This document shows, in pieces, positions 25,500 through 61,399 of a stretch of 64,000 nucleotides of DNA (position 1 is its first letter; each line of letters opens with the position of its first letter). The notes under the pieces were generated by a model, which saw nothing but the letters and a program-made list of their open reading frames with translations, ran no database searches and was not told the DNA's origin. The stretch is from Eledone cirrhosa (taxonomy: Eukaryota), in assembly GCA_964016885.1 (NCBI GenBank), contig OZ024742.1:85932001-85996000 (forward strand). Reading direction: 5' to 3'. Position numbers and translations under genes: made by a program.

Positions 25500-25779
25500 A
25501 CATTCACTTTAAGCTGGCTCATCTGGAGAAGAGAGCGGTCCTCTCTTCATTTGCCTTTGGAGCGTTTGGTGGTTAATAATTTGTGAGGTTACTGAAGCGC
25601 CCCCGTTTTGTATTTTCCCTACTGGGAAGTTTATTTTTGTAATTCATTTGTTTAATTTTATTAGCTAATTTGTTTTTTATTTAATTTTATTGTAAACCAC
25701 CACTATCCCTGTCCATTGTATTGACCCGTATATCACCGTATTTGGGTTAATAACGAAATTGTTATTATTATTATTATTA
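25500..25779 (+). mobile_element. L1-Tx1 3' UTR fragment with (ATT)n tail
   Basis: ttgtaaaccaccactatccctgtccattgtattg...ggttaataacgaaat matches the 3' end at 40051-40124. Confidence 0.7.
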
Positions 25780-25780
25780 C

Positions 25781-27378
25781 TGTTCTTTGAATCTCAGTCA
25801 TTGATGTTATTTAACTGGAAAGTTTGTTGAAATGAATATCAAGCCGCTACATGCAACCTCAGATATTCAGGACCTATCGGAGGATTCTTGTTGTTCCCAG
25901 CAAGCATGTCATTTGAAGTGTTCCAAAAAGCGGAGCTGGACTAAACTTCTTTAACCATCCTTCGAAACTATTTGAGATAGTACCTAGTGCGCATATGACA
26001 ATCGGGACGACCTTGATATCATGGCAGATCGAAATCCTTTTTAACTCTCACTTTAAATCCTGGTATTGGTTAATTTTCTCCCTCTCCTTTTCCTGTCAAA
26101 TGGGCAGGCTACATCTATAATCAGGCACGATCTTTTTTCCTTGTCAAAAACCACCAGGTCAGGTATATTGTGTTCTAATTTCTTGTCCGTCTCTATCATA
26201 GAATCTCATAGTACCTTCACCTGATCCTTTTCTATCACCGACTCTAGCTTATGTTCATACCACTTCTCAGAATGTTGTAAATTGTTTAGTTTGCATACAC
26301 ACCAGTGGATCACCCTGCCTATCACATCATGTCTCCAGCCTTTATAGTGAGACTGGGCTAGATGTTTACACTCGGATACAACGTGAGCCACAGTCTCCTC
26401 TCTCTCTCCACAGATCCTACACAGTGAGCTAGCCTTCTCCTTGTCCATATGGTGTTTCACCCACTTCGTTCTGAGGGCTGGCTATTGCGCAGCCATTAGC
26501 ATTCCTTCTGTAGTTTTTTAAAGTCTCCTCTTTTTAATCAGTTCCATGTCTGTGGAACTCTTAGTTCCGTTTTGTTAAAGAAGGTGCTATGAAGGGATTT
26601 TTATGAAGGTTGCTCATCCTACGTGTTGTTATTTCCTCCTTGGACATCCCCTGGTCTATTGTATTCTCCTTCAGTACAATTTTGAGCATTGGCTCCCTAC
26701 TGACAGTCACACATTTGTGCAGGTTGTTTTTCTCCATCGGAACACAGTCCTCTATGCTGATAAGTCTTCTTCCAACATCAGATCTCTTTAAGTAGAGTCT
26801 ATTGACATCACTCCTCTTGTGGAACATGCTGTAGATAGTCAATAACTTCCGAGTCTTCCTATCCATTTCTTTTTGTTCAGCAACATTCCATTTCAGAATT
26901 CCCGCACTGTACCTAATAATAGACACAGCTCGGAAATTTACTGCACTTATGACATTTCTACTATTTAGATGTGATTTAAATACGCCCTTTACTCTCCTTA
27001 TGTACGCAGATTTTATCAATTCCTTCATTTTTTTCTTGATTTCATCTGCCTCTAGAACACCCAAATACTTGTATCCTTCTTCAGAGTCAATTTCCTTTAT
27101 CATCTCACCTGTTGGTACCTGGATTCCGTTATCTGCTCAATTTATCCCACTTCCTCACTGGTACTCCACACTTATTAATACCAAATTCCATACATATATC
27201 ATTGCTGAAAATACGGACAGTGTGAACTAGTACCTCCAATTCCTTCTCACTCTTCCCAAATAGTTTAATATCGTCCCTTTAAGAGGAGGTGGTAAATGGT
27301 AAGTTCTCCTTTTCCCAACTTATATCCTGCTCTCACTTTTCGCAAGATAACGGACAGGGGATCAGGGCAAGGACACAC
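25781..27378 (-). mobile_element. R4/Dong retrotransposon family A, copy 1, 5'-truncated
   Basis: YKYLGV, CCHC knuckle CRICGEREETVAHVVSEC, RHD motif, endonuclease region; both ends abut (ATT)n. Confidence 0.92.
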
Positions 27379-27405
27379 TATTATTATTAGTATTAGTATT
27401 ATTAT

Positions 27406-27516
27406 GAGTTCAAATCCCGCCCAGGTTAACTTTAACTTTCATCATTACGGGGCCGATAAAATAAAGTACCAGTAATACACTGGCATAATTGCTGGCCTTG
27501 TTCCAAAAGTAGAAAT
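27406..27516 (+). mobile_element. SINE, 5'-truncated at the B box
   Basis: gagttcaaatcccgccc...gctggccttgttccaaaagtagaaat followed by TAA/ATT repeats. Confidence 0.88.
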
Positions 27517-27537
27517 AATAATAATTATTATTATTAT

Positions 27538-29060
27538 CGTTCTTTGAGTCCAGTCATTGATGATATTTAACCGGAAAGTTTGTTGAAATGAATATCAAGA
27601 CGCTTCCGGCAGCCACAGATATTCAGGCTTTATCGGAGGGTTCTTGCTGTTCTCAGTAGGCATGCCTTTTGAAGTGTTCCAAAAAACGGGACTTGACTAA
27701 TCTTCTTTAACCATCCTTGGAAACTCTTTGAGATAGTACCTAGTGCGCCTATGACAATCGAGACGACATTGATTTCATGGCAGTTCCAAATCATTTTTAA
27801 CACCCAATTTAAATCCTGGTGTCGGTTAATTTTTTCCCCTCTCATTTTCCTGCTCTCTCGTGTCAAATGGGCAGGCTACATCTACAATCAGGCACGATCT
27901 CTGTTCCTTGTCGAAAACTACCAGGTCAGGCCTATTGTGTTCCAGTTTCTTGTCCGTCTGTATCCTAAAATCCCATAGCAGCTTCACCTGATTCTTTTCT
28001 ATCAGCGACTCTGGCTTATGCTCATACCACTTCTCCGAATGTGGTAAATTGTTTACTCTGCATAGATGCCAGTGGCTTACCCTGCCTATCACATCATGTC
28101 TCCAGCGTTTGTAGTGTGTCTGGGCTTGGTGTTTACACTCGGATACAATGTGAGCCACAGTCTCCTCTCTCTCTCCACATATTCTACACAGTGGGCTAGC
28201 CTCCTCCTTGTAAATATGGTGTTTCAGCCACTTCGGTTTGAGGGCCTGCTCCTGCGCAGCCATTAGCATTCCTTCCGTAACCTTTTTAAAGGTGTGCTCT
28301 TTTCAACCAGTTCCATGTCTGTGGATCTCTAAATTCAGTTTTCTCAAAGTAGGCAATATGAAGGGATATTTCATGAAGGTTGCTTTTTCTCCTTGTTATT
28401 TCCTCCTTGGACAACCCCAGGTCTATTGTCCTCTCTTTCAGTACAGTTCTGAGCATTGGCTCCTTACTATCAGTCACGTAATTGTGTAGGTTGTTTATTC
28501 TCCATCTGAACACAGTCCTCTATGCTGATAAGATCTCTTCCACCTTCAGATCTCCTTAAGTAGAGTCTATCGACATCACACCTCTTGTGGAACATGTAGA
28601 TAGTCAATAGCTTCCTAGTCTTCCTATCCATTTCTTTTTGTTCAGCAACATTCCATCTCAGAATTCCCGCACTGTACCTAATAATAGACACAGCTCGGGA
28701 ATTTACTGCACATATGGCATTCATACTGTTCAGATGTGACTTTAATACGCTCCTTACTCTCCGAATGTATTCAGATCTTATCAATTCCTTCATTTATTTG
28801 TTCTTGATGTCATCAGCCTCCAGTACAGCCAAATACTTGTATCCTTCTTCAGTATCAATTTCCTTTATCATCTCACCTGTTGGTACCTGGATTCCGTTAC
28901 TTCTGCTCAATTTACCCCTCTTCATCACAAGGACTCCACACTTACTAATACCAAATTGCATACATATTTGATTACACTCGGATACAATGTGAGCCACAGT
29001 CTCCTCTCTCTCTCCACAGATCGTGCACAGTGGGCTAGCCCCCTCCTTGTTAATATGGTG
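27538..29060 (-). mobile_element. R4/Dong family A, copy 2, 5'-truncated, with extra zinc-knuckle segment at its 5' end
   Basis: LMAAQEQAL, CRICGEREETVAHIVSEC, LWDFRIQTDKKLEHNRPDLVV (PD..D endonuclease), IVIGALG, LQKACL; flanked by (ATT)n. Confidence 0.92.
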
Positions 29061-29090
29061 ATTAATATTATTATTATTATTATTATTATA

Positions 29091-32000
29091 ATTGCATTTA
29101 TCTTGCTTTATGTTTATACGAGTTATCACCAAGTCACCACCAGTTAACCCAAGAGAAAACATGGTCCGCCATGTTCAAGAAAGAACATACATACACACAC
29201 ATGCATCTTTAGGTGTTTAGACTTGTGATGTACTTATATCGACAGAATCCTACTTAGTATATGGGCAGTTCCCATTAGTACTATCTTTTGTATTTCTCCT
29301 ATACGGGGGTTTCCTGGGATTTGCGGTAAGTAATCATTAGACCCCTTAGGTATCATTCCGAGAGCGCCTACAACCACTGGTATTGTTTTAGTTCTCAATT
29401 TCCAAATTTTTCCAATTTCTCTCTCCAGGTTCTTATATTTGCTCAATTTTTCAAATGTTTTTATAGATACGTTCTTGTCTATTGGAACGGACATATCAAT
29501 TAGCAGGCATACCCTCTTTTTAAAGTCCTTCAGTATTATGTCAGGTATTTTTGCATCTATGTTTTGGTCTGTTTGGATACTAAAGTTCCACAAGATTGAG
29601 ATGTGATCTTTTTTAAGTATGGGAGGTGGTTGATGCTCCCACCAATTCTTTTGATGGGGCAGGTCAAAATGCTTACGCATTATCTAATGTATGTATTGTG
29701 CAGCTCTGTCACGCCTGTTTAGGTATTGGGTTGGAGCTATAGGACTGCACATTGAAATTATATGATCAATGGTCTCTGGTTGTTTTTTACATACGGCATA
29801 ATGGGCTGCATCCATTTTTTATTATGTTGGCTTGGTAATTCTTTGTTGGCAGACACTGATCTTGTGCTGATATAATCAATCCTTCAGGCTCCGATTTCAG
29901 TTCAGAGGATGTCAACCACTGATGGGTTAAAGTTTTGTCAACATCAGGATTGTTAGCTCGCTCTGGGTATTTTCCATACAGAGGCTTTTTTTGCCATTTC
30001 TTAGCCAGTTTCTGTAGCAATTCTTTCTTTGCAGTTACTTTTACCTGCTTTGCTTTTTCTGTGTTTTCCACATCAGCAGTAAATTGGACTTCTGAAATTT
30101 GTAGTCCATTACTGTATCTGTGTGCATCTTTTGTGATGGAGTATGATCTTTTGATGCTTTCGTGTTTCAAAACGAGTTTGATCATCCAATCATGTGATTC
30201 CCTTAGATATGTAGATAATCCAATTGTTGCAGTTTTCAACGCAATGTCTAACTGTATTAACCCACGTCCTCCTTCTTTCCTAGGGAGATATATTATATCT
30301 GTATCTGCCTTAGGGTGATGCATTCTGTGCATGGTTAATAACTTTCCAATTTTTGTATCGAGCCTACGGATCTCTGTGCTTGACCAGTTGATGACATTGT
30401 AACTGTAGGTTATTACCGGTATGGCAAGCATTTTTATGGCATCGATCCTATTCCTTGCATTCACTTCCGTTCTTAAGATTGCTCTTACTCTGCGGTAACA
30501 TTCCTTCCTTATCCTTTCCCTCATTGTCGAGTGCTTGATTCCGTCTCCTTCACAAACTCCTAGATATTTGTAAGATTTTTCTTGATCAAGTTCTCTTATC
30601 ACATTCCCCGATCAAGATTAATATCTGAACTTTTCAGCAGCTTTCCTCTGGTGAAGGTTGCTTTGGCGCATTTATCTAGTCCAAACTCCATGATAATGTC
30701 ATCACTGAACTGATCCACAATGGATAATGGCCCTTGCAATTGTTCATCATTTTTTGCAAATAGTTTCAGGTCATCCATGTAGAACAAATGATTAATGGTT
30801 TTGTGATATACTTTATATCCATGTTTTGTTTCATTGAGCATTTTAACTTAATGGTATAAGTGCGATGCAGAATAAAAGCGGTGATAAAGAGTCACCCTGA
30901 AAAATTCTACAATTAATATTAAGTTCTCCAGCTTCCAGTGATTCTTTTTCACTATTCAAAAGGAGTGTCGTTTTCCATGTCTTCATACTGAATGACAAAA
31001 ACCTCCTGACAACGGGGGATATTTTGAAAATCTCTAAACATGTTTCAATCCAACTGTATTGAATGCTTTTTTATAATATTTTCAAGCAATTGATAGATTT
31101 TTGTGTCTATTATGACAATCTTCCAGTATCATTTTGTTAACCAAAAGCTGATCCTTACACCCATATGAGCCTCGTTTACACCCTTTCTGCTCATTGGGAA
31201 ATAGGTCATTTGTTATCAGGTGGTCATATGTATATTCAGTTAGGAATGATGTTAAAATGTTATACATTGTGGTAAAGCAAGTTATCGGTCTGTAATTTTT
31301 GGGATTGTTTTTCTCATCATTCTTCGGAAGCAGGAATGTAATGCCGTTAACTAGCATTGATGATATGTTTTCTGTCTCCTTAACAATTTCATTGTAAAGT
31401 TGGGCTAACAGCTCATGAGACTCTGTGAAGGCATTTATCCAAAAATTTGGTATTTTGTCTTTTCCTGGGGATTTCCATTTGCTGGTTTTTCTAAGAGCCA
31501 AACGCAACTGTTCAACTGTTATATTTTCCCATATTTGTTCCTCAAGGTGAGCTGTATCTTTCATTTGTCTGTCTGTCCATGGGGCATGTATATTATGAAC
31601 TTTTTCTTCGGCTCAGATCTTATCCCAGAATTCTTGCACTTCCTCCTTGGGTGGTATTTATTTAGCAGTTATTGTTGACATGCCAATTTTTCTGTAGAAG
31701 TTTCTTTGGTTGTTTTTCAACATATTATTGTCCTTAAAGAATCCAGATCGTTTTTCAAAGCGCCTTATACGAGCAGCTTTGGCTGACACTTTGCTTGATT
31801 ATTTTTATCAGCATGTCTATGTCACTGGTTGATTTTATACCGTACTTTCTTTTCAATTTTCCAAGTTTAGTTTGTTTAACATGTTCACCTACTTTGTAGT
31901 TTGTTAACATTTCTATGTCAGATCGTAGAAGGTTTATCTGGCGATTGATGTTCTCTTGCCAAGTAGATTTCTTGTGGGAATTCCTTTGTTTTTTTATTTT

Positions 32001-33045
32001 CACTCCACATAAATGAGTGGTGACTTTAGCCGATGCATAATAGAGATGATTTAGATCAGTAATGTTTGGTTTGTTTGTGATGATAATGTTTTTGAGAATG
32101 ATGTTAGTCTTGTGTATTATCTTTTGGTTCTGTTTGGAGTTCTGGATCTTAGGGAGGGTGTCTTGTTTCCCAATGTCAGATTCTTTCATTTTCATCCATT
32201 CGATCATAATTTCATCCTTCAAGTTGGCAAGTTCATTCTCATTCATTTCTTTATCATTTACGATCTCATTGTTTTCATTTTGAGTTTCATCTTGAGCATG
32301 CACTCCCTCCACTTTTTCGATCCTTTCTTTAATTTGTTCTGCTGTCAGGGATTCCGCCCCAACCCTGGGCTTCGAAGTGTTACAATTTACCTCGTTTTCA
32401 CTGACACATGTTTCATTTTCCCTTCGCTAACTGTGTGCTAATAGCTTGATTGATCTATTTCTATATCAGTTAGTAACTTTTTTTTAACAACATTTCTTCG
32501 TATATTGGCTAGATTGTTACTGTCAATATAGCCTCTGTTTTCGGGATGTTTCTTTTTCCAGTTGATATATGTCTGTTCTGTATTCGATGTATTTGATGGG
32601 TGGTACATGGCAGTGTAGAAAGCCTCAAGGACTTCTTTATTATCTTGCCTTGACCATTTTTCTCTCTTTTTCTTTGGATTTCTTGGTGGTGAGCATGGAG
32701 GGCCAACAGCAGGAGTATTACGGTCATGGGAGGTCTCCAGCTCCGAATTGATGGGAAGGTTTGAACCATTAGCTGATTTTTCGACCCCAGTCTGGTTCCT
32801 CTTTTAGGGACGCGGGCCTTTTTGACCCGGGTGACGGCCGATCCGGTATGAGATTTTATCATTTGACATTTACTTTATTTTGTCGCGTGTTATCCTTATT
32901 CGCCAAGGGATAATCATATCGTGTTACCACTTCTAGGACGAGTGTCCACCAAGACTAGTGGGGTCGTCCACCCCTAGAGACACGGCTATTCTCCCTCGGC
33001 CGCCATCCCGGTATTTCTTGGTCACGGGGTTTTCTTTTTTGTCGT
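29091..33045 (-). mobile_element. R4/Dong family B, full-length, single long ORF (about 32869 to 29234) broken by frameshifts and stops
   Basis: Ordered motifs WKSPGKD, NYRPITC, EQKGC, GIFQGDSLSP-like, HLFYMDDLKLF, YKYLG, AQDQ, CCHC knuckle, PDIIL, PVVVGALG, IQKIVL; about 170-nt 5' UTR. Confidence 0.95.
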
Positions 33046-33099
33046 TTTTTAAATTGTTATTATCATGAGTGGTTCCTTAATGTGAGCATTGCGTGGCTT

Positions 33100-33957
33100 A
33101 AGAATGAAATTATTAATAATATAATATACTTTTTGCTGAAGTTGCCTGTTATTGTTGTTGGCTATATCGGCGGTGGTGATGGTTTTTTTTCTATTGTTGG
33201 TGGGGAAGGGGAGAGCCAGCAGTGCCATTGTTGTTGAGATTTGACCAAGTCAATAAGTCAAATCTATTTATATATTTTGCTAGCCTCTCCCTTTTCTCGT
33301 GATAGCACGACCTTCCCCTTCCTTAAGTTAACAGAAGGCAATGGGGGAATAGTTTTGGTAGTAATGAAGGCGAGTTGGCGGCTATGATGAGATAGTGGTA
33401 GCAATGATGGATGGAGTGGTCGAGACGGTGACTATAGTGATGGCGTTGTCGTTACTGAGTTTTGTTGAATAGAATGTAGCTAGTATGCGTTTGTTTGATC
33501 TGTGTATCTATGCGGTTTGTCGCGTATATTTAATATATGTGTTGACATATTTTTCTTAATATTTGAATTAAAAATTTTGGGAAAACTTGAGACACAATAA
33601 TAATAGTAATTATTATTATTATTATGCTGGGATTGGTGGTGATGGTGGTGGTGGTGAGATTGCCGTTATCTGGCTGTTGTATTTAGTGTACACAGAGGGG
33701 TGATGGGATAGGTGGTGTATCTAGTTTGTGGTGTTGGTGAAATTGCTGTTATTTGGCTGTTCTATATAGTGTAGACAGAGGGGGTTTTCTTCCATTTATA
33801 ACCATTTTCTTTTTTGAATATAAAATTTATAATACAAAATTGAATATTTGAGCGATATAACAGGATATTATGAATCCGAATTTTTTGAGAGTTGAGTCTG
33901 TTGCTTTATGTATCATTTGTACTAATAATTGTTATATCACAATTGTTTTAAATATGT
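33100..33957 (-). repeat. Unclassified repeat X, copy 1 (ACC/AAC-rich on - strand)
   Basis: Shares tctatttatatattttg, actatagtgatgg, gttatttggctgttc and the terminal tatcacaattgttttaaatatg with 43500-44042; internal 50-bp duplication at 33651-33700 / 33733-33784; strand is inferred. Confidence 0.7.
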
Positions 33958-33970
33958 TATTATTATTATT

Positions 33971-36640
33971 ACCAATTCTTCAACGCAAAACACGAAGGCT
34001 GCGTTATAAGAGCTAGAGCGCGTGCTCTGAAACACGAGGGGAGAAAAGCCGTCCAATGGGCACAGGTGGCAGAGCCGCGACGTGGCAACAAAGCCACAAT
34101 TCGGTCTTTGTCTGAACAAAACGGGTGCGTGATGCTCGAACCCGAGCGGATGTGTGAAGCCTTTCAGCAGCACTTTGCTGAACTGTTCGGGAGCGGCGGC
34201 GGCCCGGATAGGGGCATGGACTTCAGTGCATACCTCGACGGACTGCCTCGGCTCTCGACGACCACAGCAGTGTTGCGAAAAGCAAATAACAGCGGGTGAA
34301 ATATGGGAAGCGATGGCTACTGCACAAGGGGTAAATCTCCAGGTTTGGATGGTCTGCCCTACGAGCTTTATGCATTTATGCCAGACTTGTTCGGTGACCT
34401 CTTGGCAGACGTCTACTGCAACTGGCAGCAGAACGGGAGCATTCCCAGTTTTGTGAGCCGGGGAGCAGTGGCCCTGCTGAGGAAAGACCCGAACAAGGGG
34501 GATGTTATCGATAATTTCAGGCCAATAACACTGCTAAACGCAGAGTTCAAGATTCTGGCCAGGGGTTAGCAACGAGGTTGGCGCTTGTCGTCAAGGGTCT
34601 GGTGGGAGTGGCGTAGACATGCGCCATTCCGGACAGATCCATACACGGCAACCTTCACCTCATGCGATACATCATAGAGAGGGTGGTTAAGGAACCTGCA
34701 TGGGTGGGGCCCTGATCAACTTGAATCAATCCAAAGCATTCGATAGGGTCGACTATCGGTAGCTGGCGGCGTTCGCGAGGCAGCCGGTTTCGGGCCCGTT
34801 TCCAGGGGTTGGATCGCAGCAATGTACAACGACATCTGCTCAGTTGTGAGGGTGAACGGTCACCTGTCGTAGCCGTTCAGCATCATGCGCTCAGTCGGCC
34901 AGGGTTGTCCCCGCTCGCTCCTCTTGTACGTATTTGCTCTCGAGCCGTTACTGCCCAGACTGGGGGCGATGAGGGGCGTCCCACGCGAACTAGGATGCGG
35001 GAAATCCGAGTCGGCTTACGCTGACGACGTCAGCGTGGTGGTGTCGAGCACCAGACACGTCCAGATGCTCGGCACCGCTCTCAAGGAATACGAAGCAGCG
35101 GCCGGAGCAAAGATGAACCAGGAAAAGTCGGTGGGCTTGCAACTCGGCACCTGGAGAGACAAGTCCATGCCGTCCGACAGCGTCGTTGGGCGTTGGACGG
35201 ACGGACCGGTTAAACTGCTCGGGGTCTGGTTCGGACCGGACCTCCAGATGGAGAAAAACTCGAACAAGGTGAAGAGCAGGGTGGCCTCCTTCACCCAGAA
35301 ATGGGCCGAGAGGAAGCTGTCCCTGAAAGCCCGGGCGGAGGTGGCGAATGCATACATCGCATCCGTCATCTGCTACCGCCACACCGTCGTCCTTTGCTCC
35401 AGCCCAACTCTCACCAAAATGGAGCGCCTCTTCTTCCGCTTTTTGTGGAAGCGACGTGCTGTCAACACCCGTGGCGTGGAGGACTGGGCATGCCATGGCT
35501 GATGATGCGCAAACATACGCTTAGGCTGCGACATCTCTGGTGCTTCCTTGATGGTGAACAGGTGTGGTCGCCGTTCGCCAGTCACGTTTTCCCACAGCTC
35601 GTCTCCTTGACAGAGCTGCAGTCCTAGGTCAGGAAAAGACCCAGGGATAGCGCTTGGAAACTGGAATGTCTCAAGGCGCTCATTGCCCTGTGCCAGCTGG
35701 GCACCAGTATCGGTGGAACATCCACCTCGGCGTTCTATAGAGAACTAGTGGAGGGGAAGAGCGCCGACATTCTCGGAGAGATCCTGGACGTCGAAGAGGA
35801 TCAGCTGTTTTCTCTCCTCCGGAGAACTTTCTGCCCGGGGCCTATGGATAACATCCACAAATCCCTGGCCGGGCAGTGCTACCGGGGAGCGCTGCCGGTT
35901 CGAGATAAGCTCTACAGGCACGGAAGTGCCGTCAGCCGATCCTGTCCGTGAGCGTACAGAGCGACGAAATCGTCGTACACGCCCTCGTTCAGTGCCCGAG
36001 CATTGCTGACATGTGGAGCTATGTCGAACAGATGCAGTGGCGTGTAGAACTGATCCGTTTGTCGACTGAGTCTATTATGCAGATGATCTCACCGTCTTCC
36101 TTCGAGGGGAAGGGCAGGCGGTTTTTATCTGCTTGGTGGCCATGGCGAAAGAGATTGTGTGGTGGACAAATGTTAAAAGTGTTAAATACAGACACTTTCC
36201 TCTTCGGCGAATCCCTAATTAACTTTTTCAAGTTTCACTTGAAGAGGAACATCAGGGTGGAGAGGCAAGTGCTGCCTTCTAGCAAGTTTGTTGAAAGGAG
36301 GGTGAATATATGTCTGTAGTTTGAATATATGTCTGTAGTTTGAGAGATGGAAAAATTGAGAGAGGCCGCATGCACTGGTGGGCAGGGTGGCCGTGGTCTT
36401 TTGTGTGGATTTCGCCACGAGTAACCTTCGGAGGTTTCCCCCCGATTGGGGAATTTTTCATTGTTTCAATTTTCATTTTTATTGTTTATATATATATGTT
36501 TCTTTGTCCTTTTTTTTCTTTTCTTATATAAATAATAGAAAATATTTACACGCACAAAATTCACATCATACCGTCCTCTACCGTCCTGTGCCGTCTGTAA
36601 TGTTTTTCTTGATGTCAGCCCTTGTGGCCAATAAAGAAAT

Positions 36641-36641
<1 letters not shown>
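33971..36641 (+). mobile_element. L1-Tx1 retrotransposon copy 1, 5'-truncated
   Basis: KSPGLDGLPYE, NFRPITLLN, QGCP, YADD, C-terminal zinc-finger remnant, 3' cccttgtggccaataaa; (ATT)n on both sides. Confidence 0.93.
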
Positions 36642-36672: not shown

Positions 36673-36679
36673 TTATTAT

Positions 36680-40147: not shown

Positions 40148-40200
40148 GTACCTGTAATGCACTGGGTAATTGCTGGCCTTGTGCCTGAATTGGAAACAAT
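40148..40200 (+). mobile_element. SINE 3' fragment
   Basis: gtacctgtaatgcactgggtaattgctggccttgtgcctgaattggaaacaat then (TAT)n. Confidence 0.8.
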
Positions 40201-43490: not shown

Positions 43491-43499
43491 TTATTATTA

Positions 43500-44042: not shown

Positions 44043-44043
44043 A

Positions 44044-44097
<54 letters not shown>

Positions 44098-44098
<1 letters not shown>

Positions 44099-49958: not shown

Positions 49959-49977
49959 ATTATTATTATTATTATTA

Positions 49978-52900
49978 AATGCCATGTTTGACGGAGCCTC
50001 GGCTCTGTAAGGTATTGTAATTTTTAACCGTTATAACAAGTGTAAATTGTTTAAAACTTGAACCAAATTGTAGATGAAGACACCTTCCTCCTTTTGAGCG
50101 GCCTCTTTCTCCCCGTTATTTGGCCCTTCGGAGTTAAATAACCAGATATTAGGGATTTGTGCCCAATATTCATTTTAAATCTTAAAAAAAACATGGCTAC
50201 AAAAAATAATTTTTACAAGTCACTCCCACTCCTTCCGTCTTCTTCCCAAATCGTCATTACGCCAGAGAAAAGATTGTCTCTCTCCCTCACTTCTCTAAAT
50301 GTGGTGTCGCCTCTGTCGCCTCTTTTGCAAGCGACGCCATTAAAGAAAAAGAAAAAATGTAGTTTCTCGTAGCTTTCTTCAAGAGAACGCGCGTACCGTG
50401 GAACATTTCTCACGACGACGACAACAGCGGAAGATGTGTGCGGTAAATACGGAAAGCGATTTCATTTGTCTGACGTCATGAAGAATAGCAGCAGCAGCAG
50501 CAACAGTGGCGAGGAAAATACTAGTAGCAGCCGCAACATCAGCAGCAGCATAAAAAACAACAACAACAGCAGCAGCAACAGCAACACCAACAGCAGCAGC
50601 AGCAACAGCAGCAACAACAACAACAACAACAACTGCAACAGCAACAGCGGCAGCGGCGGTCGTAGTACCAGCAGCAACAAGAAAAGTAACAGCAGTTTTG
50701 ACGATAACAACAAGAAAGAAAAACCAATCTCGTTTGCAGGTATCGCAAAGAACCTGGAAACCATCCATATAACAAATGAGGAATTACAGGAAGCAAGGAA
50801 GATGGTGACAAAAAGAGGACACCGAGCAATCTGCAATACAGCCGAAGAATTTTTCGAAAACCCAACAGCCCTGTACGGTCACATACCGTACAGTAAGCAC
50901 AAAATCACGTAGGGTTGAAAGAGTCTCAGAGGCTCAAATACAAAAAGAAATATGCCACCGTGGCTCAAATACAAGAAGAAATATGCCATCGTGGGCGTGC
51001 TTTTTGCCACACCCCAGGAGGCAAAGGCTCAATCCTTAGTAACCCCGAGGAGCGAAGAAATGGTGTTGGTGCCCTCCTACTGCGGGCAAAAATTGTGAGG
51101 GTCAAACTGATACAAGTGTCCCCCGGGATGGGCCCGTATTGGCTGGCCGCGTCTGTCCTCGTCAGAATCGAGGACAAAACAACCGTAGTGCAAGTACAGA
51201 AAAAAGTACGAGAAGATTGGATCGGCGCCTCCATTGAGATGTTAATTCAAACCAACTAGGAGTGCATCGAAGCCATCCCGGATGTGATAGACTTCGATAA
51301 CGGCACTCAACTTCCCATAAGTGTTGAGGGAAAACGCCCGAAATGCTTTCGCTGTGGTTCGAAGACTCACCTAAGGGCCAATGAGAACAGCCTGAGAAAA
51401 GAGAAAACTCCCCTCCTTCCGAAACCGGATCCACTGCTACTATCAACAGGACAGGCAGCAAGCAGGAAGGATAGGTCCATGGCACCCATATCCACGCCAC
51501 GGATATCAAGAACAGCAGCAGCAGTGGAAGTATTAACAACAACAACAGTAATACCAACTGCAGCTGCAACAGAGACTCCACTGCAAACATCACCAACAAG
51601 AACAAATGTAGAGTGGAGCTGGTATCCCGCCCCGACATCACAGAATCGGACATGGAGTGTGATGTGGGAGAGGGATGGCAAAAGGTCGCAATAAGGCACA
51701 AACGCAGAAGCAGCGCATTGTCGCCTTTGAATAAAGAGGGAAGAAATGAAAAAAGGGTGAATGCTACTGCAAAGCGATTTACATCAGCAACACCACCAAC
51801 ATCATCACCACCCACACTAGCACTACCATCACCACCGGCGGCAACCCCACCGCCAACAGCAACAACACCACCACAGACACCAACATCGCACACACAGAAA
51901 AAGAAATGCACAGCAATAAATACACACAACAAGAAACTAATGACTTACATAATTGAACACAGTCATTTCACAGCACGACTACATAATACCAGCATCAATC
52001 AAAACACAAACGAACATAAGACTGCTAAGAATATCACAGAAATAATACACAAACATTAAAATGAAATTCACCAACGCACTTGGTGATTTCACAGACATAC
52101 GAGGGACACTCAAGCGGAGAGTATAATCGGATATACTCACGGAAGAGCCGACGACCAGCCGAAGGCACTATTCAATGGTTCCTTTACCAGACGATCAAAG
52201 TAAGTGATCCTTTCTCATTTGCCCCGTTACCTCACTCAACAGGAATGGAAGTGTAACCGTGCGTGGCTTGAGCTCGGTTTGGAAGCAGAGTCACTTACTT
52301 AACGACCTCAGGTCATTAAACATAGATGTGGTGGCCATCAGCGAAACAAGAAACTCCGAAACGGAAGCTTTCGCACAGATCTTCGACTGTTACGAGGTGT
52401 ACGCATCTCCGAGCCGTCCGGGAGCTGGCGGCGGAGTGGCTGTGTTGTTTCCATAAGGCTTTGGTATCGGCATACGGACCATCTTCCTGAACCCAGAAGG
52501 TAAGTCTGTGGTGCTGGAGGTAAGCGGCACCGAAGGCAACGATCTCAGGTTAGTAGCCGTCTATGCCCCGACAGGGATAGGACGGCCAGTTTTCTTTCGA
52601 CCTCTAGAGACCTTTCTTGGAACGTCCCGCTATTTAGTGTTAGTGGGCGACTGGAACGGTATCTTGGATGCACGCTGGGATTGTGTGGGGCTAGTGATAG
52701 GGGAGGACGGTTCAAGAGCCTCACCAACCTACTCAGACGTTTTGAACTCTCTGATAGGTATCGACTAGATCACCCTAATATTCCAATGTTGACATGGACA
52801 AACCGCATCACCTCATCCAGATCGTATCTCGATAGGGTATTCTGCAGAGAACTAGATAAGGCTAGTATAAGTTGTCCACATTTTAAAATAGTCGTCTACA

Positions 52901-53790
52901 CAGACCACAAATTTGTGATCCGTGAGATCGACAGAGACAGACTTCATAAACAAGGACCCGGTTACTGGAAGCTGAACGCGTCTTTCTCGACGCGCAAAGC
53001 CTACAGAGACCGGATTAGCGAATTAGTTAAGCGGGCATTGACGGGAGCGGTCGTCAACAACAGGTGGTGGTTCGCTCTTAAAAGGCCAATTAAAGTAGAG
53101 TCGATTAGGTTTAGCAAAGGACTAGTGATAGAGGAAAATAGAGTAGAGGAGGAGCTAGGCAGAAATCTAGAAGAGGCGTTTAGGACAGGCATCGCAACCG
53201 ACGTGCTTGCGGCGAGATTTGCACTTGACCAATTCTTCAACGCAAAACACGAAGGCTGCGTTGTCAGAGCTAGAGCGCGTTCTCTGAAACACGAGGGGAC
53301 AAAAGCCGTCTAATGGGCCCGGGTTCAGAGGCTTGACGTGGCAACAAAGCCACAATTCGGTCTTTATCTGGTCAAAACGGGTGCTTTTTGCTCGAACCCG
53401 AGCAGATGTGTGAAGCTTTTCAGCAGCACTTTGCTGAACTGTTCGGGAGCAGCGGCGGGTTGAATCGAAGTATGGACTTCAGTGCATACTTCGACGGACT
53501 GCTTCAGCTCTCGGCGACCACAGCTCAGTGTTGCGAAAAGCCAATAATAGCCGGTAATATACGGGAAGCGATGGCTAACTCCACGAGGGTTAAATCGCCA
53601 GGTTTGGATCGACTGCCCAACGAGCTTTCTGCATTTATGCCAGGCTTGTTCGGTGACCTCTTGGCAGACGTCTACTGAAACTGGCAGCAGAACGGGAGAA
53701 TTCCCAGTTTTGTGAGCCGGGGAGCAGTGGCCCTGCTGAGAAAAGACCCGAACAAGGGGGATGTTATCGATAATTTCAGGCCCATAACTC
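49978..53790 (+). mobile_element. L1-Tx1 copy 4, 5'-complete with a distinct 5' UTR and ORF1, 3'-truncated at the start of RT
   Basis: ORF1 from ATG 50193 with CAG/CAA tracts and knuckle CFRCGSKTH; APE motifs from about 52250; stops after NFRPIT; 53229-53790 closely matches the start of copy 1. Confidence 0.92.
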
Positions 53791-55213
53791 TCCATTACTG
53801 TATCTTTGTGCATCTTTTGTAATGGAATATGATCTTTTGATGCTTTCGTGTTTCAAAACGAGTTTGATCATCCAATCATGTGATTACCTTAGATATGTAG
53901 ATAATCCAATTGTTGCAGTTTTCAACGCAATGTCTAACTGGATTAACCCACGTCCTCCTTCTTTCCTAGGGAGATATATTCTATCTATATCTGCCTTAGG
54001 GTGATGAATTCTGTGCATGGTTAAGAACTTTCGAATTTTTGTATCGAGCCTACGGATCTCTGGGCTTGACCAGTTGATGACATTGTAACTGTAGGTTACT
54101 ACTGGTATGGCAAGCGTGTTTATGGCATCGATCCTATTCCTTGCATTCAATTCCGTTCTTAAAATTGCTCTTACTCTGCGGTAACATTCCTTCCTTATCC
54201 TTTCCCTCATTGTCGAGTGCTTGATTCCGTCTCCTTCACAAACACCTAGATATTTGTAAGTTTTTTCTTGATCAAGTTCTCTTATTACGTTCCCCCGATC
54301 AAGATTAATGTCTGAACTCTTCAGCAGTTTTCCTCTGGTGAACGTTGCTTTGGCGCATTTATCTAGTCCAAACTCCATTTTAATGTCATCACTGAACTGC
54401 TCCACAGTGGATAATAGCCCTTGCAATTGTTCATCATTTTTTGCAAATAGTTTCAGATCATCCATGTGGAACAGGTGATTAATGGTTTTGTCTGAGACTT
54501 TATATCCATGTTTTGTTTCATTGAGCATTTTACTTAATGGTATAAGTGCGATGCAGAATAAAAGCGGTGATAAAGAGTCACCCTGAAAAATTCCACAATT
54601 AATATTAACTTCTCCAGCTTCCAGTGATTTTGTTTCACTATTCAAAAGGAGTGTCGTTTTCCATGTCTTCATACTGAATGAAAAAAACCTCCCGACAACG
54701 GGGGATATTTTGAAATTCTCTAAACATTTTTTAATCCAACTGTGTGGCGAACTATCGAATGCTTTTTTATAATCTATCCAAGCAATCGATAGATTTTTGT
54801 GTCTATTATGACAATCTTCCAGTATCATTTTGTTAACCAGAAGCTGATCCTTACAGCCATATGAGCCTCGTTTACACCCTTTCTGCTCAATGGGAAATAG
54901 GTCATTTGTTATCAGGTGGTCATATGTGTATTCAGTTAGGACTGATGTTAACATTTTATACATTGTGGTCAAGCAAGTTATCGGTCAGTAATTTTTGTGA
55001 TTGTTTGTCTCATCATTCTTCGGGAGCAGGCATGTAATGCCGTTAACTAGCCATGATGGTATCTTTTCTGGCTTCTTAACTATTTCATTGTAAAGTTGGG
55101 CTAACAGCTCATTAGAATCTGTGAAGGCATTTATCCAAAGTTTTGAATTTTGTCTTTTCCTGGGGATTTCCATTTGCTGTTTTTTCTTAGAGCCAAGCGC
55201 AACTGTTCAACTG

Positions 55214-55216
<3 letters not shown>
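53791..55216 (-). mobile_element. R4/Dong family B, copy 2, internal RT segment
   Basis: ORF 54972-53884 with EQKGC, WIDYKKAFD, CGIFQGDSLSPLLF, HMDDLKLF, YKYLG; closely matches 30107-31521; 5' end runs into (ATT)n. Confidence 0.95.

Positions 55217-55269
<53 letters not shown>
55214..55269. repeat. (ATT)n tract between Dong and Tx1 copies
   Basis: Directly visible; similar tracts at 25762, 27379, 27517, 29061, 33958, 36642, 40125, 40201, 44044, 49959, 61103. Confidence 0.95.
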
Positions 55270-58200
55270 GGCGACCTACGTAGTAAATCGGATCATCGTG
55301 AGCTCCGCAAAGGTTAGTTATTTTCAGTTATTTAAATTGCCATTTATGGAAAACTTTTATTGTTAACTGTATATAAGTGCAGATACATTGTTATCTGAAA
55401 AGTACACCCAAAAAGATTGGGGCCTTGTGCCCAAAATTTAAACTTTTATGATTATCAAAAAATTTCATTGAAAAAATCATGGCTGATTCACCTCTGCACC
55501 AAGCAGCTGAGAGCCATCCTCACAAACTAACACCTCACACCGACACCACCATTGTAAATATTACTACGTTTGCCAACACTAAAAATTTAAGCAGTAGCAA
55601 TATTTTTAATTTGTCTCAGACATTCATTTCCCGCCATTACCAATGACTGCAGGTGTTAAAGCCGCCACCACCACCACCACCGCGAGGACCACCACCCCCA
55701 CCACACCCGCGACAACAGAAACAAAAGAAAGAAAGAAATTAACTCGTGATGAAATGAATTCAACCAAAATGAACTCTTCCACACCGAACACCACTTACGC
55801 CACCACCACCACAACTGAAACTAAAATTAATAATAACAAAAATAACGATAACAATAAAAGCAAAAATGACATTAAGAAAACCACCCTGAGTTTTGCCAGA
55901 GTATCAAAACAGTGCGAAGCATTTCAGGTAACTCGGGAGGAATTAGAAGATGCACAAAAAATGGTAAAGTAAGATGGGTACAGGGACAGCCTCACCCCAC
56001 CCAACCCACCCCAAACACACACACACCAAATAAAATGGAGCATCGGCGCCTATGCCCCGTGTCTTATTGAACAATTAATGTAAAATCGCGCCGAGTGGAA
56101 CGGGCATCCGAGTCCCAAATCCAAAAAGCTTTGGGACATGTGTGGGCAAGAAAAACCCACATCAGACGTGGTCAGAAGCATGGAACCGTGGACGTGTTCT
56201 TTGAAACACGAGAGGAGGCTAGAGAACACTCCGTGGCCCCATTAAGAAGTGACGACTTCACACACGTTCCAAGCTATTGTGGCCAGAGACTCGTAAAGAT
56301 CAGGCTGACCCACGTTCCACCGGCCATCGAAATTCCCTGGCTAATAGCTGCCGTCCTCGCCGGCATCGAACCCAACACCAAGATAATAGCAATAGCGAAA
56401 AAAGAGCAGAAGAACTGGTCCGGATCTGGGATGGAGCTCCTGATCCAAGCGGACCAAAAAAGCATTGAGGAGATCCCAGAGGTAATAGACCTCACTGACG
56501 GCAGCCACCTCACCGTAATTGTCGAGGGCTAGGTGTGTCGTTTGTGGTGAAGGAACCTACCTAACGGCTTTCTGCCTTCAGGCTAAAAGGTTGAGGCCAC
56601 CTCTCCTACCCACCCCAGTGACTCAACCATCAACACCACCAGCACCAGAGATGGCAGCAACAACTGTAGCAGCAATAACAGAAGCAACTATAATAGCAAC
56701 AACCCCAGCAACAGTAGCAAAACCAACACCACCACCACCACCCAACGCTTCAGGACTAGCACCAGCGCCTACACCATCCAGCACGCTACAACCAAAACTA
56801 ACGCCGTGGAGGATTTTCCACTCCCCGGCCTATCACACCTGGAGACATATTGTGACGACGAGGAGTGGGAAACGGTATCAGGAAAAAAGAAAAAAAGAAA
56901 CCAAAAAAGAAAAAAATCTCTTCCTTCCAAAAACAAAATACAGAGGGAAACAAATAAACTATCAAACCAAAAAGTTAGGACAGACATGCCACCATCCATA
57001 CCAGCATCACCAACCCCATCACCCCAAACACCAACACCATCACCATCATTAACCCCAACCCCATCATCACCTACACCACAAAAGTCACCAAAATGTGAAA
57101 CAGAAACAAACCCACAACAAACTCAAACAAAACAAAACAACCAAAACGATACACACTACACAGCATTAAATTTGAACAACAACCAATTATTACACTACAT
57201 CCAACACAACACCAGCATCACAGAAAAAGACAACACAACAACCCAAAAGTTCACACCACCTCCACACATACAAATCAGTCGCATCACACAGAACACGTAC
57301 ATAACACTAAAACAAAAATTCCCCAAAGACATCGGAGCCTTCCGACAAGCACTCTCCAGGAGGATTTATAAGGACATCCTTCCCGAGGAGGCCACAAGCA
57401 GTGAAAAGGATGGAGAAACCGTCCTTCCTCTACGAGAAGTAAGTGAACTTTCCCATCTTTTCCACTCCTTTTCAATGACCGCAGTCAGAATAGGCAGCAT
57501 AAATGCGCCATGGCTTGGGGTCGTCATGGAAGCAGGGCCACCTGCTCAACGACCTCAGGTCACTAAACATAGATGTAGTGGCCATCAGCGAGACTAGAAT
57601 CTCCGAAGCACGAGCCTTCGCACCGATCTTCGGCGGCTACAATGTGTACGCATCTCCCAGCCGTCCGGGATCGGGGGAGGAGTTGCTTTGCTTTTTCGGA
57701 GAGATTTAGATCTTGCCATACTGGCCATCTTCCTGGACTCAGAAGGTAAGTTGGTGGTTCTAGACGTGACCAGCGAAGACGGGCAAGCTTTCAGGTTAGT
57801 GGCCGTCTATGCCCCGACAGGAGCAGGGTGGCCTGATTTCTTCCGGCGTGTGGAGACCTTTCTTGGAACGTCCCGCTCTTTAGTGTTAGTGGGAGACTGA
57901 AACGGGATCTTAGATGCACGCTGGGATTGTGTGGGATTAGTGGATAGGGGAGGAGAGTGCAAGAGTCTCACCATCCTGCTCAGGCGTTTTGAACTGTCTG
58001 ACAGGTACCGATTGGATTTCCCGATGTGGACTTGGACAAATCGCATAGGGTCATCCAGATCATATCTAGATAGAGTATTTTGTAGGGAAATAGATACGTC
58101 CAGCATAGGATGTCCACAATTCAAGATAGTTAGCTACACGGACCACAAATAAGTGATATGTGTGCTTGACTTAGATCGGCTTCATAGACGAGGACCCGGT

Positions 58201-61102
58201 TACCGGATGCTAAACGCGTCCTTAGCACCGCGCAAGGCTTACAGAGACCGGATTAGCGAACTTGTTAAGCGGGCGTTGAAGGAGGCCATTGTCAACAGCA
58301 AGTGGTGGTTCGCTCTGAAAAGAGCAATTAGAATAGAGTCCATTAGGTTTAGTAAGGCTTTAGCATTAGAGAAAAATAGAGCAGAGGGAGAATTAGTTAG
58401 AACATTAGAGGAGGCGCTTTGCAAAGGCATTGCCACCGACGTACTTGCGGCGAAATTGGCCCTTGAACAATTTTTCAATGCAAAGCACGAAGGCTGCATT
58501 GTCAGAGCTAGGGTGCGTGCTCTCAGACACGAGGGGACGAAAGCCGTTCAATGGGCCCGAGTGGCGGAGGCGCGTCGTGGCAACAAAGCCACGATCCGGT
58601 CTTTGGTGGACCACGACGGGCGCATGCTACTCGATCCCGGGAAAATGTGTGAAGCTTTTCAGCGACACTTCGCTCAGCTGTTGGGGCAGCGGCGGGCCAT
58701 ATCGGGCGATAGGCTTTAGTGTCTACCTTGACGGACTGCCGCGGCTCTCGGCCACTGAGGCGGAGTGTTGCGAAATGCCGCTAACAGCCGCTGAAGTACG
58801 GGAGGCAATGACTGGATGCACAAGGGGTAAATCGCCTGGTTTGGATGGTCTGCCCTATGAACTTTACGTACAAATGCCAGACTTATTCGGAGGCCTCTTG
58901 ACGGACGTCTACTGCAATGGCAACAGAACGGGACAATTCCCAGCTTTGTGAGCCGAGGAGCGGTGGCGCTACTGAGAAAGGATCCGAAAAAGGGGGATAA
59001 CATTGATAATTTTAGGCCCATAACTCTGCTAAACACAGAGTTCAAGATTTTGGCCAAGGTGCTAGCAAAGAGGTTGGCGCTTGTCGTTGGTGGTCTGGTG
59101 AAAGAGGCGCTGATATGCGCCATTCCCGACAGATCCATCCACAACAACCTCCACCTCATGCGATACATCGTAGAGAGGGTAGCTAGGGAACCTGGCACGG
59201 GTGTGTGTTTGATAAATTTAGATCAGTCGAAAGCCTTCGATAGGGTCGAGCATCGTTACCTAGCGGCAGTCCTGAGAGCGGCTGGCTTTGGGCCCGTCTT
59301 CAGAGGCTGGATCGCTGCCATGCACAGCGACATCTGCTCTGTGGTGAGCGTGAACGGTCACCTTTCGGAACCGTTCAACATCATGCGCTTGGTCCGCCAA
59401 GGATGTCCCCTCTCGTCCCTCTTGTACGTATTGACTCTCGAGCCATTACTGCACAAACTGGAGACGTTGAGGGGGGTCCCGCGCGAACTAGGATGCGGAA
59501 GATCCGTGTCAGCATATGCGGACGATGTCACCGTAGTGGTGTCGAACGCCAAACACATCGAGGCGATCGGCACTACTCTAAGAGAATACGAAGCGGTGAC
59601 AGGAGCAATGATCAACCAGAAAAAGTCAGTGGGCCTGCAGCTCGGCACCTGGGGAGGCAGGTCCATGCTGTCCAACAGCGTTGTCGGGCGCTGGACGGAC
59701 GGACCGGTTAAATTGCTAGGGGTCTGGTTCGGTCCGGACCTCCAGACGGACAAAAACTGGGACGAGGTGACAAGCAGGGTGGCTTCTCTCACCCAGAAAT
59801 GGGCCGAGAGGAAGCTATCCCTGAAAGGTCGAGCGGAGCTGGCTAACACGTACATGGCGTCCGTCATCTACTACCGCCTGACCGTCGTACCTTGTCCTAA
59901 GCCCCGCCTGACTGCGCTGGAGCGTTTGCTCTTTCGCTTTTTGTGGAAGGGACGCGCTCCGGTGGTCAGGCGGTCCATCTGCTGTCAACACCCGCTACAT
60001 GGAAGGTTTGGCATGCCGTGGCTGATGATGCGAAGACACGAGCTCAGGCTTATATCTCCACCTCTTCCTCGACGGTGATCAGGTGTGGTCGCCGTTTGCT
60101 AGACGCGTCTTTCCCCAGCTCGTCTCCTTGACGGAGTTGCAGTCCTGGGTCAAGCGAAGACCGAGAGGGAGCGCTTGGAGACTGGAATGTCTTCAGGCGC
60201 TCACAGCCCTCGACCAATCGGCCAATGTGATCGGTGGAAACTCCACCTTGGCGTTCTATAGAGGATTAGTGGAGGCGAAGAGCGACGACGTACTTGGAGA
60301 AAATCTAGGCGTCGACGAAAATCAACTAGCCAATCTCCTCGGAAGGACTTTCGGGCGGGGGCCTATAAACAACTTCCAGAAATCCCTGGCCTGGCAGTGC
60401 TACCGGGGAGCTTTGCCAGTTCGGGAGGTTCCGTCAGCCGGGCATGTCCGATATGCGCGCAGGGCAACGAAACCGTCCTGCACGCACTCGTCCAGTGTCC
60501 TAGCATTGCTGACTTGTGGGTTTATGTCGAACAACTGCTGTCACGTGTAGGACGGATACAGCTATCAGCTGAGTCCATCGTGAGGATTTCCCCGCCCTCT
60601 TCCTTTAGCCGGGAAGGGCAGGCAGTTTTTATCTGTCTGGTGGCCATGGCGAAAGAGATAGTATGGTGGACACGTTTGAAAGGGCTGAAGACGAGCACTT
60701 ACCTCTTCGGTGATGCCCTGATTAACCTTTTCAAATTTAATTTGAAAAGGAAAATCAAGGTAAAGAGGGAAGTGCTCTCTTCCCAGCATTTTGTTGAAAG
60801 ATGGATGAGAAGCAAGTATGGCCCGAGTGAATGGGCCTACCCTGAGTATGTGTTTGTAAATTAAAGGTGGAAAACTGGGAGAGGGCACTTGCCCTGGTTG
60901 TCAGGGTCACCGTGGTCTTTAATGGGCTTTCTCAACAAATGTCCCTCAGAAGTCTCCCCCCTATTGGGGAATTTTTCTTTGTTATTTCATTACATCCTCT
61001 GTTTTTTTTACACGCAGAAATGCCCATTTGTACCGTCCTGTATTGTCCTGTACTGGCCTTAATGTCTACTTTATGCAAACCCTTGTGGTTAATAAAGAAA
61101 AC
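55270..61102 (+). mobile_element. L1-Tx1 copy 5, full length and best preserved (ORF1 from about 55480, ORF2 57475-60864), frameshifted
   Basis: ORF2 MTAVRIGSINA, VAISET, AVYAP, TDH; RT segment 58948-60078 with DQSKAFDRV, RQGCPLS, YADD; CPIC...ETVLHALVQC; aataaa then (ATT)n. Confidence 0.95.
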
Positions 61103-61103
61103 A

Positions 61104-61134
<31 letters not shown>

Positions 61135-61399
61135 TATCATCATTATTATTTTTACTTTTCTTTGTTATTGGACAGAAATACAAAACTATTGTAGGTGAAG
61201 TGTGAATTTACAAACGATGAAAGAAATGCAAAATATGTAAAGAAATAAAACAGTTGATAATAATCAATAATAGTATAGCAATAAATATTCTCCAGAAAGA
61301 GGGAGTACCACGTAGGGGGTACCTAAGAAGCACAACGATGCTAGACCACCCTAATCTCCACGAGCACCATGAGAGAGCGCCTCTCTCATTTTTAGTCAC

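Follow-up and report, generated by a model that had tools for sequence, protein, structure and literature searches.

The 64,000-nucleotide stretch of Eledone cirrhosa DNA analysed here (contig OZ024742.1, positions 85,932,001 to 85,996,000; hereafter the window) raises the question of why retrotransposon copies of different classes lie on opposite strands and are joined through simple repeats of one orientation. Positions 25420-61150 of the window are occupied by a chain of 14 dead or broken non-LTR retrotransposon copies joined via short ATT repeats. The plus strand carries six Tx1-like copies and three SINE pieces, the minus strand five Dong/R4-like copies belonging to two families. The identified elements account for 33,636 of the 35,731 bp of the nest (94%). 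No N is present in the window, and no telomeric array was found in it. The evidence comes from this one window, and the copies of one nest are not independent of each other.

Composition of the nest

The leftmost element is T0 (25420-25760, plus strand), a Tx1-like 3' stub that likely comprises the last ORF2 codons and the 3' UTR and matches the 3' end of T2 at 78% over 95 nt; its left edge (~25420) is approximate and carries no ATT. A twin-priming inversion was considered as a link between T0 and an old Tx1 on the minus strand (23030-25420) and rejected, since the ORF2 of the latter runs to an end of its own and its 3' region is different. An ATT tract (25761-25781; this and the following ATT tracts are read on the plus strand) lies between the tail of T0 and that of D1a (25782-27379, minus strand), a 5'-truncated Dong/R4-like copy of family D1 recognised with tblastn and 86% identical to D1b and D1c. 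The next ATT tract (27380-27404) separates the 5' end of D1a from that of S27, a 5'-truncated SINE (27405-27513, plus strand) followed by an AAT/ATT tract up to 27538. D1b (27539-29060, minus strand) is a 5'-truncated Dong-like copy whose 5' end bears an additional 95 nt of zinc-finger region (28969-29063), and an ATT tract (29061-29093) leads from this end to the tail of D2a. The latter (29094-33066, minus strand; 5' edge approximate) is a 5'-complete Dong-like copy of family D2, with one ORF containing seven stops and six frameshifts. It is followed by segment X1 (33070-33958, strand not assigned), which has an internal AAT/ATT tract (33593-33626) and ends on the right in an ATT tract (33957-33970).

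Two 5'-truncated Tx1-like copies on the plus strand, T1 (33971-36641) and T2 (36678-40123, beginning inside the endonuclease), have ATT on each side, and the SINE 3' stub S40 (40150-40198, plus strand) is flanked by two ATT tracts. The 5'-complete Dong-like copy D1c (40214-43120, minus strand) has an internal deletion at ~41220. Segment X2 (43130-44043, strand not assigned) contains S43 (43400-43486, plus strand), a 5'-truncated SINE with a 9-bp ATT-type duplication with one mismatch, and stops at an 18-unit ATT tract (44044-44097). T3 (44098-49958, plus strand) is a full-length Tx1-like copy with 5' UTR, ORF1, ORF2 and 3' UTR. T4 (49977-53790, plus strand), of the T1 subfamily (90%), is 5'-complete and broken in the RT, and D2b (53791-55215, minus strand), 93.5% identical to D2a, is 5'-truncated and lacks its 3' kilobase. 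An ATT tract (55216-55269) joins the 5' end of D2b to that of T5 (55270-61102, plus strand), also full-length, 83% identical to the more decayed T3 and with the fewest breaks. A terminal ATT tract (61103-61154) closes the chain.

The sequence-only reading had placed five Dong copies on the minus strand, and five Tx1 copies and three SINEs on the plus strand. The classes and strands were confirmed, with the five long Tx1 copies starting at 33971, 36678, 44098, 49977 and 55270, and the T0 stub adds a sixth Tx1. The list lacked X1 and X2 and did not divide the Dong copies into two families or the five long Tx1 copies into three subfamilies.

The assignment of the Tx1-like copies is based on ORF2, in which Exo_endo_phos was found in T3, RVT_1 in T5 and zf-RVT in T2, giving the APE, RT and C-terminal zinc finger of this group. 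The RT scored 186 bits against P0114 (named Transposon TX1) versus 109 bits against LINE-1 ORF2; an RT tree of 28 rows, containing no named R4 or other named references, parts the Tx1-like from the Dong-like sequences. ORF1 retains a decayed CCHC knuckle in T4 and T5, and the motif is intact in 18 of 150 ORF1 relatives, mostly fragments. In the test for an RRM-like core, RRM_1 was found on 18% of one Atlas cluster. The relatives of the nest ORF1 come from octopods.

The two Dong-like families have no nucleotide match between them. D2a aligns to residues 3-1237 of P0124, in which no Exo_endo_phos (APE) was found, and RVT_1 was detected in D2b; a single ORF with RT and without APE agrees with the R4/Dong clade. 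The best solved relatives of the protein are R2 proteins. The translations of D1a, D1b, D1c and D2a carry a C-terminal CCHC finger and PD-(D/E)xK restriction-like endonuclease motifs, the combination that we take to define the Dong-like C-terminus, and this region matches the P0124 C-terminus at 56%. At the N-terminus Atlas gave a Myb_Rap1 lead at 0.86, under its 0.9 line, and Pfam gave no match. Neither Rfam nor a strict descriptor found an HDV-like ribozyme at the Dong 5' end; a relaxed descriptor, tuned afterwards, returned one candidate in D2a from 32981 (1 of 60 shuffles) and none in D1c.

The SINE is likely a partner of the Tx1-like elements. For three of six SINE copies the similarity to the 3' end of T1 is reached by 5 or fewer of 500 shuffles; the match to the other Tx1 ends is weak or absent. 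SINEs outside the nest show 12- and 10-bp duplications starting with ATTAT in the sense orientation, a clear duplication being present in 2 of 4 outside copies. The search for a tRNA-like head gave no tRNA call and no Rfam match, and the three nest pieces are without heads.

X1 and X2 are related 0.9-kb segments, about 70% alike. A Dong-like 3' end, expected if X were mobilised by Dong, failed the shuffles (418-2000 of 2000, X left ends); as a Tx1 3' UTR on the plus strand X had no significant match (16-640 shuffles reached), and as a protein-coding 5' end on the minus strand it had no match among 300 candidates. None of 150 ORF1 relatives matched X, which shows no codon-phase signal. A weak likeness to the Tx1 5' UTRs was reached by 0 and 9 of 300 shuffles for T5 and by 50-100 of 300 for T3; read as Tx1 5' ends on the minus strand, the segments would violate the polarity of the nest. 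Rfam returned AT-repeat and hairpin miRNA noise only, under the gathering scores.

Repeat tracts at the element ends

Among exact tracts of at least four units, 16 of 17 read ATT on the plus strand, and 15 of those 16 fall within 25764-61129. When tracts of at least three units in any phase were counted, the nest contained 19 of ATT type versus 4 of AAT type, and the 25.4 kb to its left 3 versus 4. A clear ATT run, defined as a score of 13 or more, was found at 14 of 19 scored junction points; it is decayed at two (score 8) and absent at three. Of 5000 random windows in the flanks 0.16% reached a score of 12, and of 5000 element-body windows none did. The earlier claim of ATT in one orientation at nearly every boundary stands for the 14 clear points, but fails at the 5' end of D1c (~43120) and at the fusion of T4 to D2b (53790/53791, junction score 4), both without ATT.

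The Dong sense strand carries (TAA)n at all four intact 3' ends, and three of five 5' ends are clear. At the 5'-complete copies, D2a and D1c, the 5' tract is decayed or absent, and segment X, not a clean TAA run, adjoins the 5' end of both. A clear 5' ATT was found in two of the three SINE pieces of the nest. No 5' ATT was seen at T0 or at three older Tx1 copies outside the nest.

These ends bear on the view that Tx1 and SINE elements insert without repeat preference and bring ATT tails, which Dong alone targets. It agrees with the three Dong 3' ends that meet a Tx1 tail (25782) or SINE tails (27539 and 40214), as had been noticed from the sequence, and with the position of SINEs outside the nest, which are not in long tracts. 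However, ATT is present at the 5' ends of all five long Tx1 copies, including two whose 5' truncation falls in ORF2, and it also occupies two junctions where elements meet head to head (27380, score 21; 55240, score 53) and where it cannot be a tail. Locally this contradicts a role of tails alone, which we regard as very unlikely, and argues that Tx1 itself targets the repeat, in the sense opposite to Dong. The proposal that ATT tails create Dong targets thus keeps its sink and loses its restriction to tails, since ATT also flanks Tx1 and SINE 5' ends as the target of all three classes. The proposed order of insertion, Dong into Tx1 tails, is not demonstrated: tail-to-tail junctions are symmetric, so that which element entered which is not readable from them, and the ages of the Dong copies overlap with those of the Tx1 copies.

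The polarity is local to the ATT tract. Just outside the nest, older Tx1 copies lie on the minus strand, an older Dong on the plus strand and SINEs on both. An older separate pair at 4085-6646 consists of a Dong and a Tx1 arranged tail to tail, both flipped relative to the nest; both tails are lost, and the ATT link between them is presumed.

How the nest may have grown

The reading we favour, with a probability of about 0.78, is that Tx1-like elements, together with a SINE that is likely their partner, and Dong-like elements inserted separately into a shared target, the (ATT/AAT)n repeat, nicking opposite strands of it and leaving the tract on both sides, and that the nest likely grew in this way. 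As cDNA synthesis is primed by the nicked strand in target-primed reverse transcription, the strand that is cut sets the orientation of the insert. The predicted nicks are in the AAT strand for the APE endonuclease of Tx1 and in the ATT strand for the restriction-like endonuclease of Dong, and the strand polarity would result from target-primed insertion into a single tract by way of its two strands. The poly(A) signal of all five Tx1 3' ends is just 12-14 nt away from the tract that follows, with no poly(A) ahead of that tract, which suggests that the Tx1 RNA would end in a few AUU units copied from the donor tract and able to anneal to the primer. A single seed tract would then set, through its orientation, the polarity of all later arrivals. 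As one tract becomes two with each insertion, self-propagation follows logically, and there is support for a multi-family sink fed by one independent insertion after another into ATT/TAA tracts. The direct junction of T4 and D2b may be due to later deletions. Most likely the nest is neutral debris.

A broader scenario, which we consider unlikely, would have octopod Tx1 gain (ATT)n specificity in parallel to Dong, with the doubling of targets producing runaway strand-sorted interstitial arrays as part of the octopus LINE hotspots. X would be a captured promoter module common to two Dong families, driving minus-strand transcription against the Tx1 promoters and giving dual-strand small-RNA loci.

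There is little probability that the nest is a host-selected piRNA source whose polarity is selectively maintained so as to yield a transcript antisense to one class. Three Tx1 5' UTRs do point through Dong copies in antisense and element density is high, but targeting fully explains the polarity, the whole pattern is flipped at 4085-6646, and the nest contains just a 96-nt local palindrome and no inverted pair of one family. The small-RNA role suggested earlier is therefore unsupported here.

It is scarcely probable that the array arose mainly from a few units duplicated segmentally or in tandem, or from recombination between ATT tracts. The families are paired (T3/T5, T1/T4, D2a/D2b, X1/X2), the orders SINE-ATT-D1 and Dong-X-ATT-Tx1 each occur twice, and T3 and T5 have one frameshifting gap in common (versus 8 and 3 private ones). 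However, the check for shared junctions found none of 16 with a second copy matching at least 60 nt on both sides, sister copies have unlike 5' ends and neighbours, and the pair identities are unequal (70, 83, 86, 90 and 93.5%). T3 and T5 also differ in age, as indicated by their private substitutions (101 versus 52 over 1633 columns, p = 9e-5) and breaks per 100 codons (1.94 versus 0.56). T1 and T4 could not be ordered, with 12 versus 22 private changes (p = 0.12) and break densities pointing the opposite way. The repeated SINE-ATT-D1 order is read as probable recurrence, since the SINE tails at the two junctions differ like two subfamilies; an old duplication of X alone may have occurred.

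An assembly artefact, with repeat reads joined through ATT tracts, is hardly credible: nearly all joins lie in simple repeat, but the copies are 6-30% divergent mutually and decayed individually, the window has no N, and misjoins would not respect class polarity.

Comparison with known systems

Insertion of Dong into TAA repeats is known (PMC7998251, PMC3774820), TAA being the target in most insects, molluscs and cnidarians (PMC7998251), and PMC13282606 describes Dong-R4 as abundant in O. vulgaris. The nest copies resemble known members of the R4 clade (Bombyx mori Dong, DongAg, DongBg and Dong-R4 in Octopus annotations) in having one ORF, RT, CCHC finger, PD-D/K endonuclease and (TAA)n. They differ in that two divergent families occur in one nest and 5'-complete copies are preceded by X.

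Microsatellite-specific Tx1 elements are also known. The accessible parts of PMC4494074 and PMC10088271 describe Kibi on (TC)n, Koshi on (TTC)n, crocodilian elements on (TTCC)n/(TTTC)n and the telomeric Tx1-1_ACar, which have in common with the nest Tx1 two ORFs, an APE-RT-zinc finger ORF2 and the same repeat at both ends. The nest differs in its target, (ATT)n in sense, which does not appear among the targets given in those parts, in its mollusc host and in a target common with a restriction-endonuclease element. PMC4494074 calls a Tx1 target-specific when one repeat type makes up over 20% of flanks genome-wide; within this nest, all five long Tx1 copies have ATT at both intact ends. An ATT-specific Tx1 with the target of Dong was not found in the accessible literature, and the supplements of PMC4494074 and Repbase may list further Tx1 targets. 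The nest suggests the existence of a Tx1 lineage specific for (ATT)n. The principles at work are already known, and the evidence reveals no host function.

With a common target, the other strand and another endonuclease class, (ATT)n Tx1 and Dong would form a natural pair for studying target specificity evolving twice. They also offer a simple testable cause for some transposon hotspots of Octopus vulgaris, 288 of which are mapped without a mechanism in the available text of PMC13282606.

In crocodilian SINEU/Tx1-Mar, according to PMC4494074, a SINE shares its target preference with a Tx1 group and tandem insertions arise around the target. That target is a Mariner transposon, whereas the pairing of SINE and Tx1 in the nest draws on a weak 3'-end match and the duplications starting with ATTAT. 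The nest works like the silkworm TRAS/SART elements, which insert oppositely into one (TTAGG)n telomeric repeat, as set by their endonucleases, and form arrays (PMC7265360, PMC10088271): in both, two element types lie in opposite orientation in one repeat. TRAS and SART are telomeric, and both are APE elements of the R1 clade that carry poly(A) tails, whereas the nest combines Tx1 (APE) with R4 (restriction-like), without poly(A) and with ordinary flanks on both sides.

Composition and layout of the nest

The window is AT-rich animal DNA in which retrotransposon remains are packed densely between about 25420 and 61150; the anatomy of this block was drawn from self-comparison and from tblastn with intact relatives. 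From the left, the block consists of the 3′ stub of a Tx1-like copy (T0, plus strand), the Dong-like copy D1a (25782-27379, minus), the SINE piece S27 (plus), the Dong-like copies D1b (27539-29060, minus) and D2a (29094-33066, minus, 5′-complete), segment X1 (33070-33958), the Tx1-like copies T1 (33971-36641, plus) and T2 (36678-40123, plus), the SINE piece S40 (plus), D1c (40214-43120, minus, 5′-complete with an internal deletion) and segment X2 (43130-44043), which contains the SINE piece S43 (plus). These are followed by the full copy T3 (44098-49958, plus), T4 (49977-53790, plus, 3′ half absent), D2b (53791-55215, minus, 3′ end absent) and, rightmost, the full copy T5 (55270-61102, plus). 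All 14 identified copies obey the class-strand rule, and every copy is broken, at a density of 0.56-2.0 stops plus frameshifts per 100 codons. Far older Tx1-like copies lie on the minus strand on either side (23030-25420 and 61626-62075; break densities of 6.6 and 7.0 per 100 codons), the left one containing a minus-strand SINE (25206-25387).

The plus-strand LINEs carry APE, RT and zinc-finger domains and a decayed ORF1 knuckle, and score 186 bits to a protein named Transposon TX1 vs 109 bits to LINE-1 ORF2. They form three subfamilies (T1/T4, 90%; T3/T5, 83%; T2 alone, matching the rest at about 70-72%). A single ORF in the minus-strand LINEs encodes RT, a CCHC finger and PD-D/K motifs, and R2 proteins are their nearest solved structures; D1 copies are 86% and D2 copies 93.5% alike, and the two families have no nucleotide-level match with each other. 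Architecture and nearest names provisionally assign the plus-strand LINEs to Tx1 and the minus-strand LINEs to R4/Dong. Ten of the 150 listed ORF1 relatives were looked up, and the seven with an organism name all come from octopods (Octopus sinensis, O. bimaculoides, O. vulgaris, Argonauta), which makes an octopod host likely. Excerpts of PMC13282606 and PMC8967140 describe Dong-R4 and L1-Tx1 as abundant in octopods. The CpG observed/expected ratio is about 0.48 in Dong copies (29240-32870, 40300-43010) vs 0.85-0.91 in Tx1 ORF2 copies. At its 5′ end (28969-29063), D1b repeats 95 nt of its own interior (91.6% to 28130-28224), perhaps through a template jump at insertion.

Probable insertion at ATT tracts

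Sixteen of the 17 exact tracts of at least four units read ATT on the plus strand, 15 of those inside the nest, and the 19 junction points comprise 14 with a clear ATT run, two decayed and three with none; under the proposed mechanism these counts are not independent, and they show structure, not genome-wide specificity. A comparable ATT score is reached by 0.16% of flank windows. ATT directly precedes all five long Tx1 copies, even T1 and T2, whose 5′ truncation falls within ORF2. At 27380 (D1a/S27) and 55240 (D2b/T5), a tract lies between two head-to-head 5′ ends, so that neither tract is a tail brought by a neighbour; ATT is probably the target, beyond being a tail. All five Tx1 3′ ends have a word like a poly(A) signal 12-14 nt upstream of the tract, with no poly(A) in between, a spacing which suggests that Tx1 transcripts terminate in AUU units copied from the donor locus.

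In target-primed reverse transcription, the cDNA is primed by the nicked strand. Insertion in the ATT sense would then require cutting of the AAT strand, and insertion in the TAA sense cutting of the ATT strand. Because repeat remains on both sides of an insertion, one tract would become two of unchanged orientation, and newcomers would adopt the polarity of their own class. Dong ends are TAA in sense, in agreement with excerpts of PMC7998251, PMC3774820 and PMC3812793. Near 5500, an older plus-strand Dong (4085-5500) meets an old minus-strand Tx1 (5500-6646) in a tail-to-tail fusion that has lost both tails; this flipped pattern is what a polarity set by the tract would produce. Both tails are likewise lost at 53790 (T4/D2b), probably through a deletion of about 3 kb.

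Segmental duplication would have left shared junctions, and a search of 16 junctions found no second copy with a match of at least 60 nt on both sides. The SINE-ATT-D1 join does recur, below this threshold since S40 is short, and its two SINE tails diverge as members of distinct subfamilies would. T3 and T5 carry unequal private substitutions (101 vs 52) and frameshifting gaps (8 vs 3, with one common to both). These results argue firmly for a nest built by independent insertion, not duplication. Private change of about 6% in each D1 copy and about 3% in each D2 copy points to overlapping Dong and Tx1 arrivals, in at least two waves. Tail-to-tail junctions give no readable order, and the sequence-only reading, in which Dong entered the tails of Tx1 and SINE copies, is thus no more than possible.

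SINEs, segment X and other repeats

Two of the four SINEs outside the nest have clear duplications (12 and 10 bp) beginning ATTAT in sense, and the 3′ ends of three out of six SINE copies look like that of T1; together these weakly suggest that the SINE may be moved by a Tx1 machinery. A 29-nt stretch in the 5′ UTRs of T3 (44220-44250) and T5 (55415-55445) is like the SINE 3′ end (11 and 59 of 1000 shuffles). The T2 3′ end (40060-40123) presumably resembles that of the octopus OK SINE.

Segments X1 and X2 resemble each other in blocks, at about 70%, and at an ATT tract both finish in the same 22 nt. Each 5′-complete Dong copy has X upstream, and the three truncated copies lack it there; on the minus strand X shows weak likeness to Tx1 5′ UTRs. 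It may be a Dong 5′ module, a separate element or old host sequence. Protein, codon-phase and 3′-end tests of X1 and X2 were all negative. A conserved TATA-like word and ATG context occur on the minus strand of X.

At 1-1229 (plus) lies the 3′ part of another LINE (RT match), which we take to be RTE-like; it ends in a long (AT)n tract and is a second case of repeat-associated insertion. A MITE-like, near-perfect palindromic element of 300 bp in (AT)n and a second, shorter copy (10486-10899, 15242-15545) account for sub-threshold miRNA matches. Inverted-arm pairs at 11170-11889 (76% over 167 nt) and 18201-19303 (73% over 295 nt) are likely old non-autonomous DNA transposons.

Relation to known systems

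The polarised nest described in the sequence-only reading is real, mostly as described, and known targeting rules explain it; its proposal of a small-RNA source found no support in the window sequence. No ATT-specific Tx1 or cephalopod Dong/Tx1 nest was found in the titles, abstract openings and passages of the literature that were covered, nor in excerpts of PMC4640811, PMC4758252, PMC11203168 and PMC9115989. Known microsatellite-specific Tx1 families target TC, TTC, TTCC/TTTC and telomeric repeats (excerpts of PMC4494074). What may be new here is a likely ATT-specific Tx1 lineage that shares the target of Dong on the other strand. Compared with the TRAS/SART arrays in excerpts of PMC7265360 and PMC10088271, the nest is not such an array, yet it works like one.
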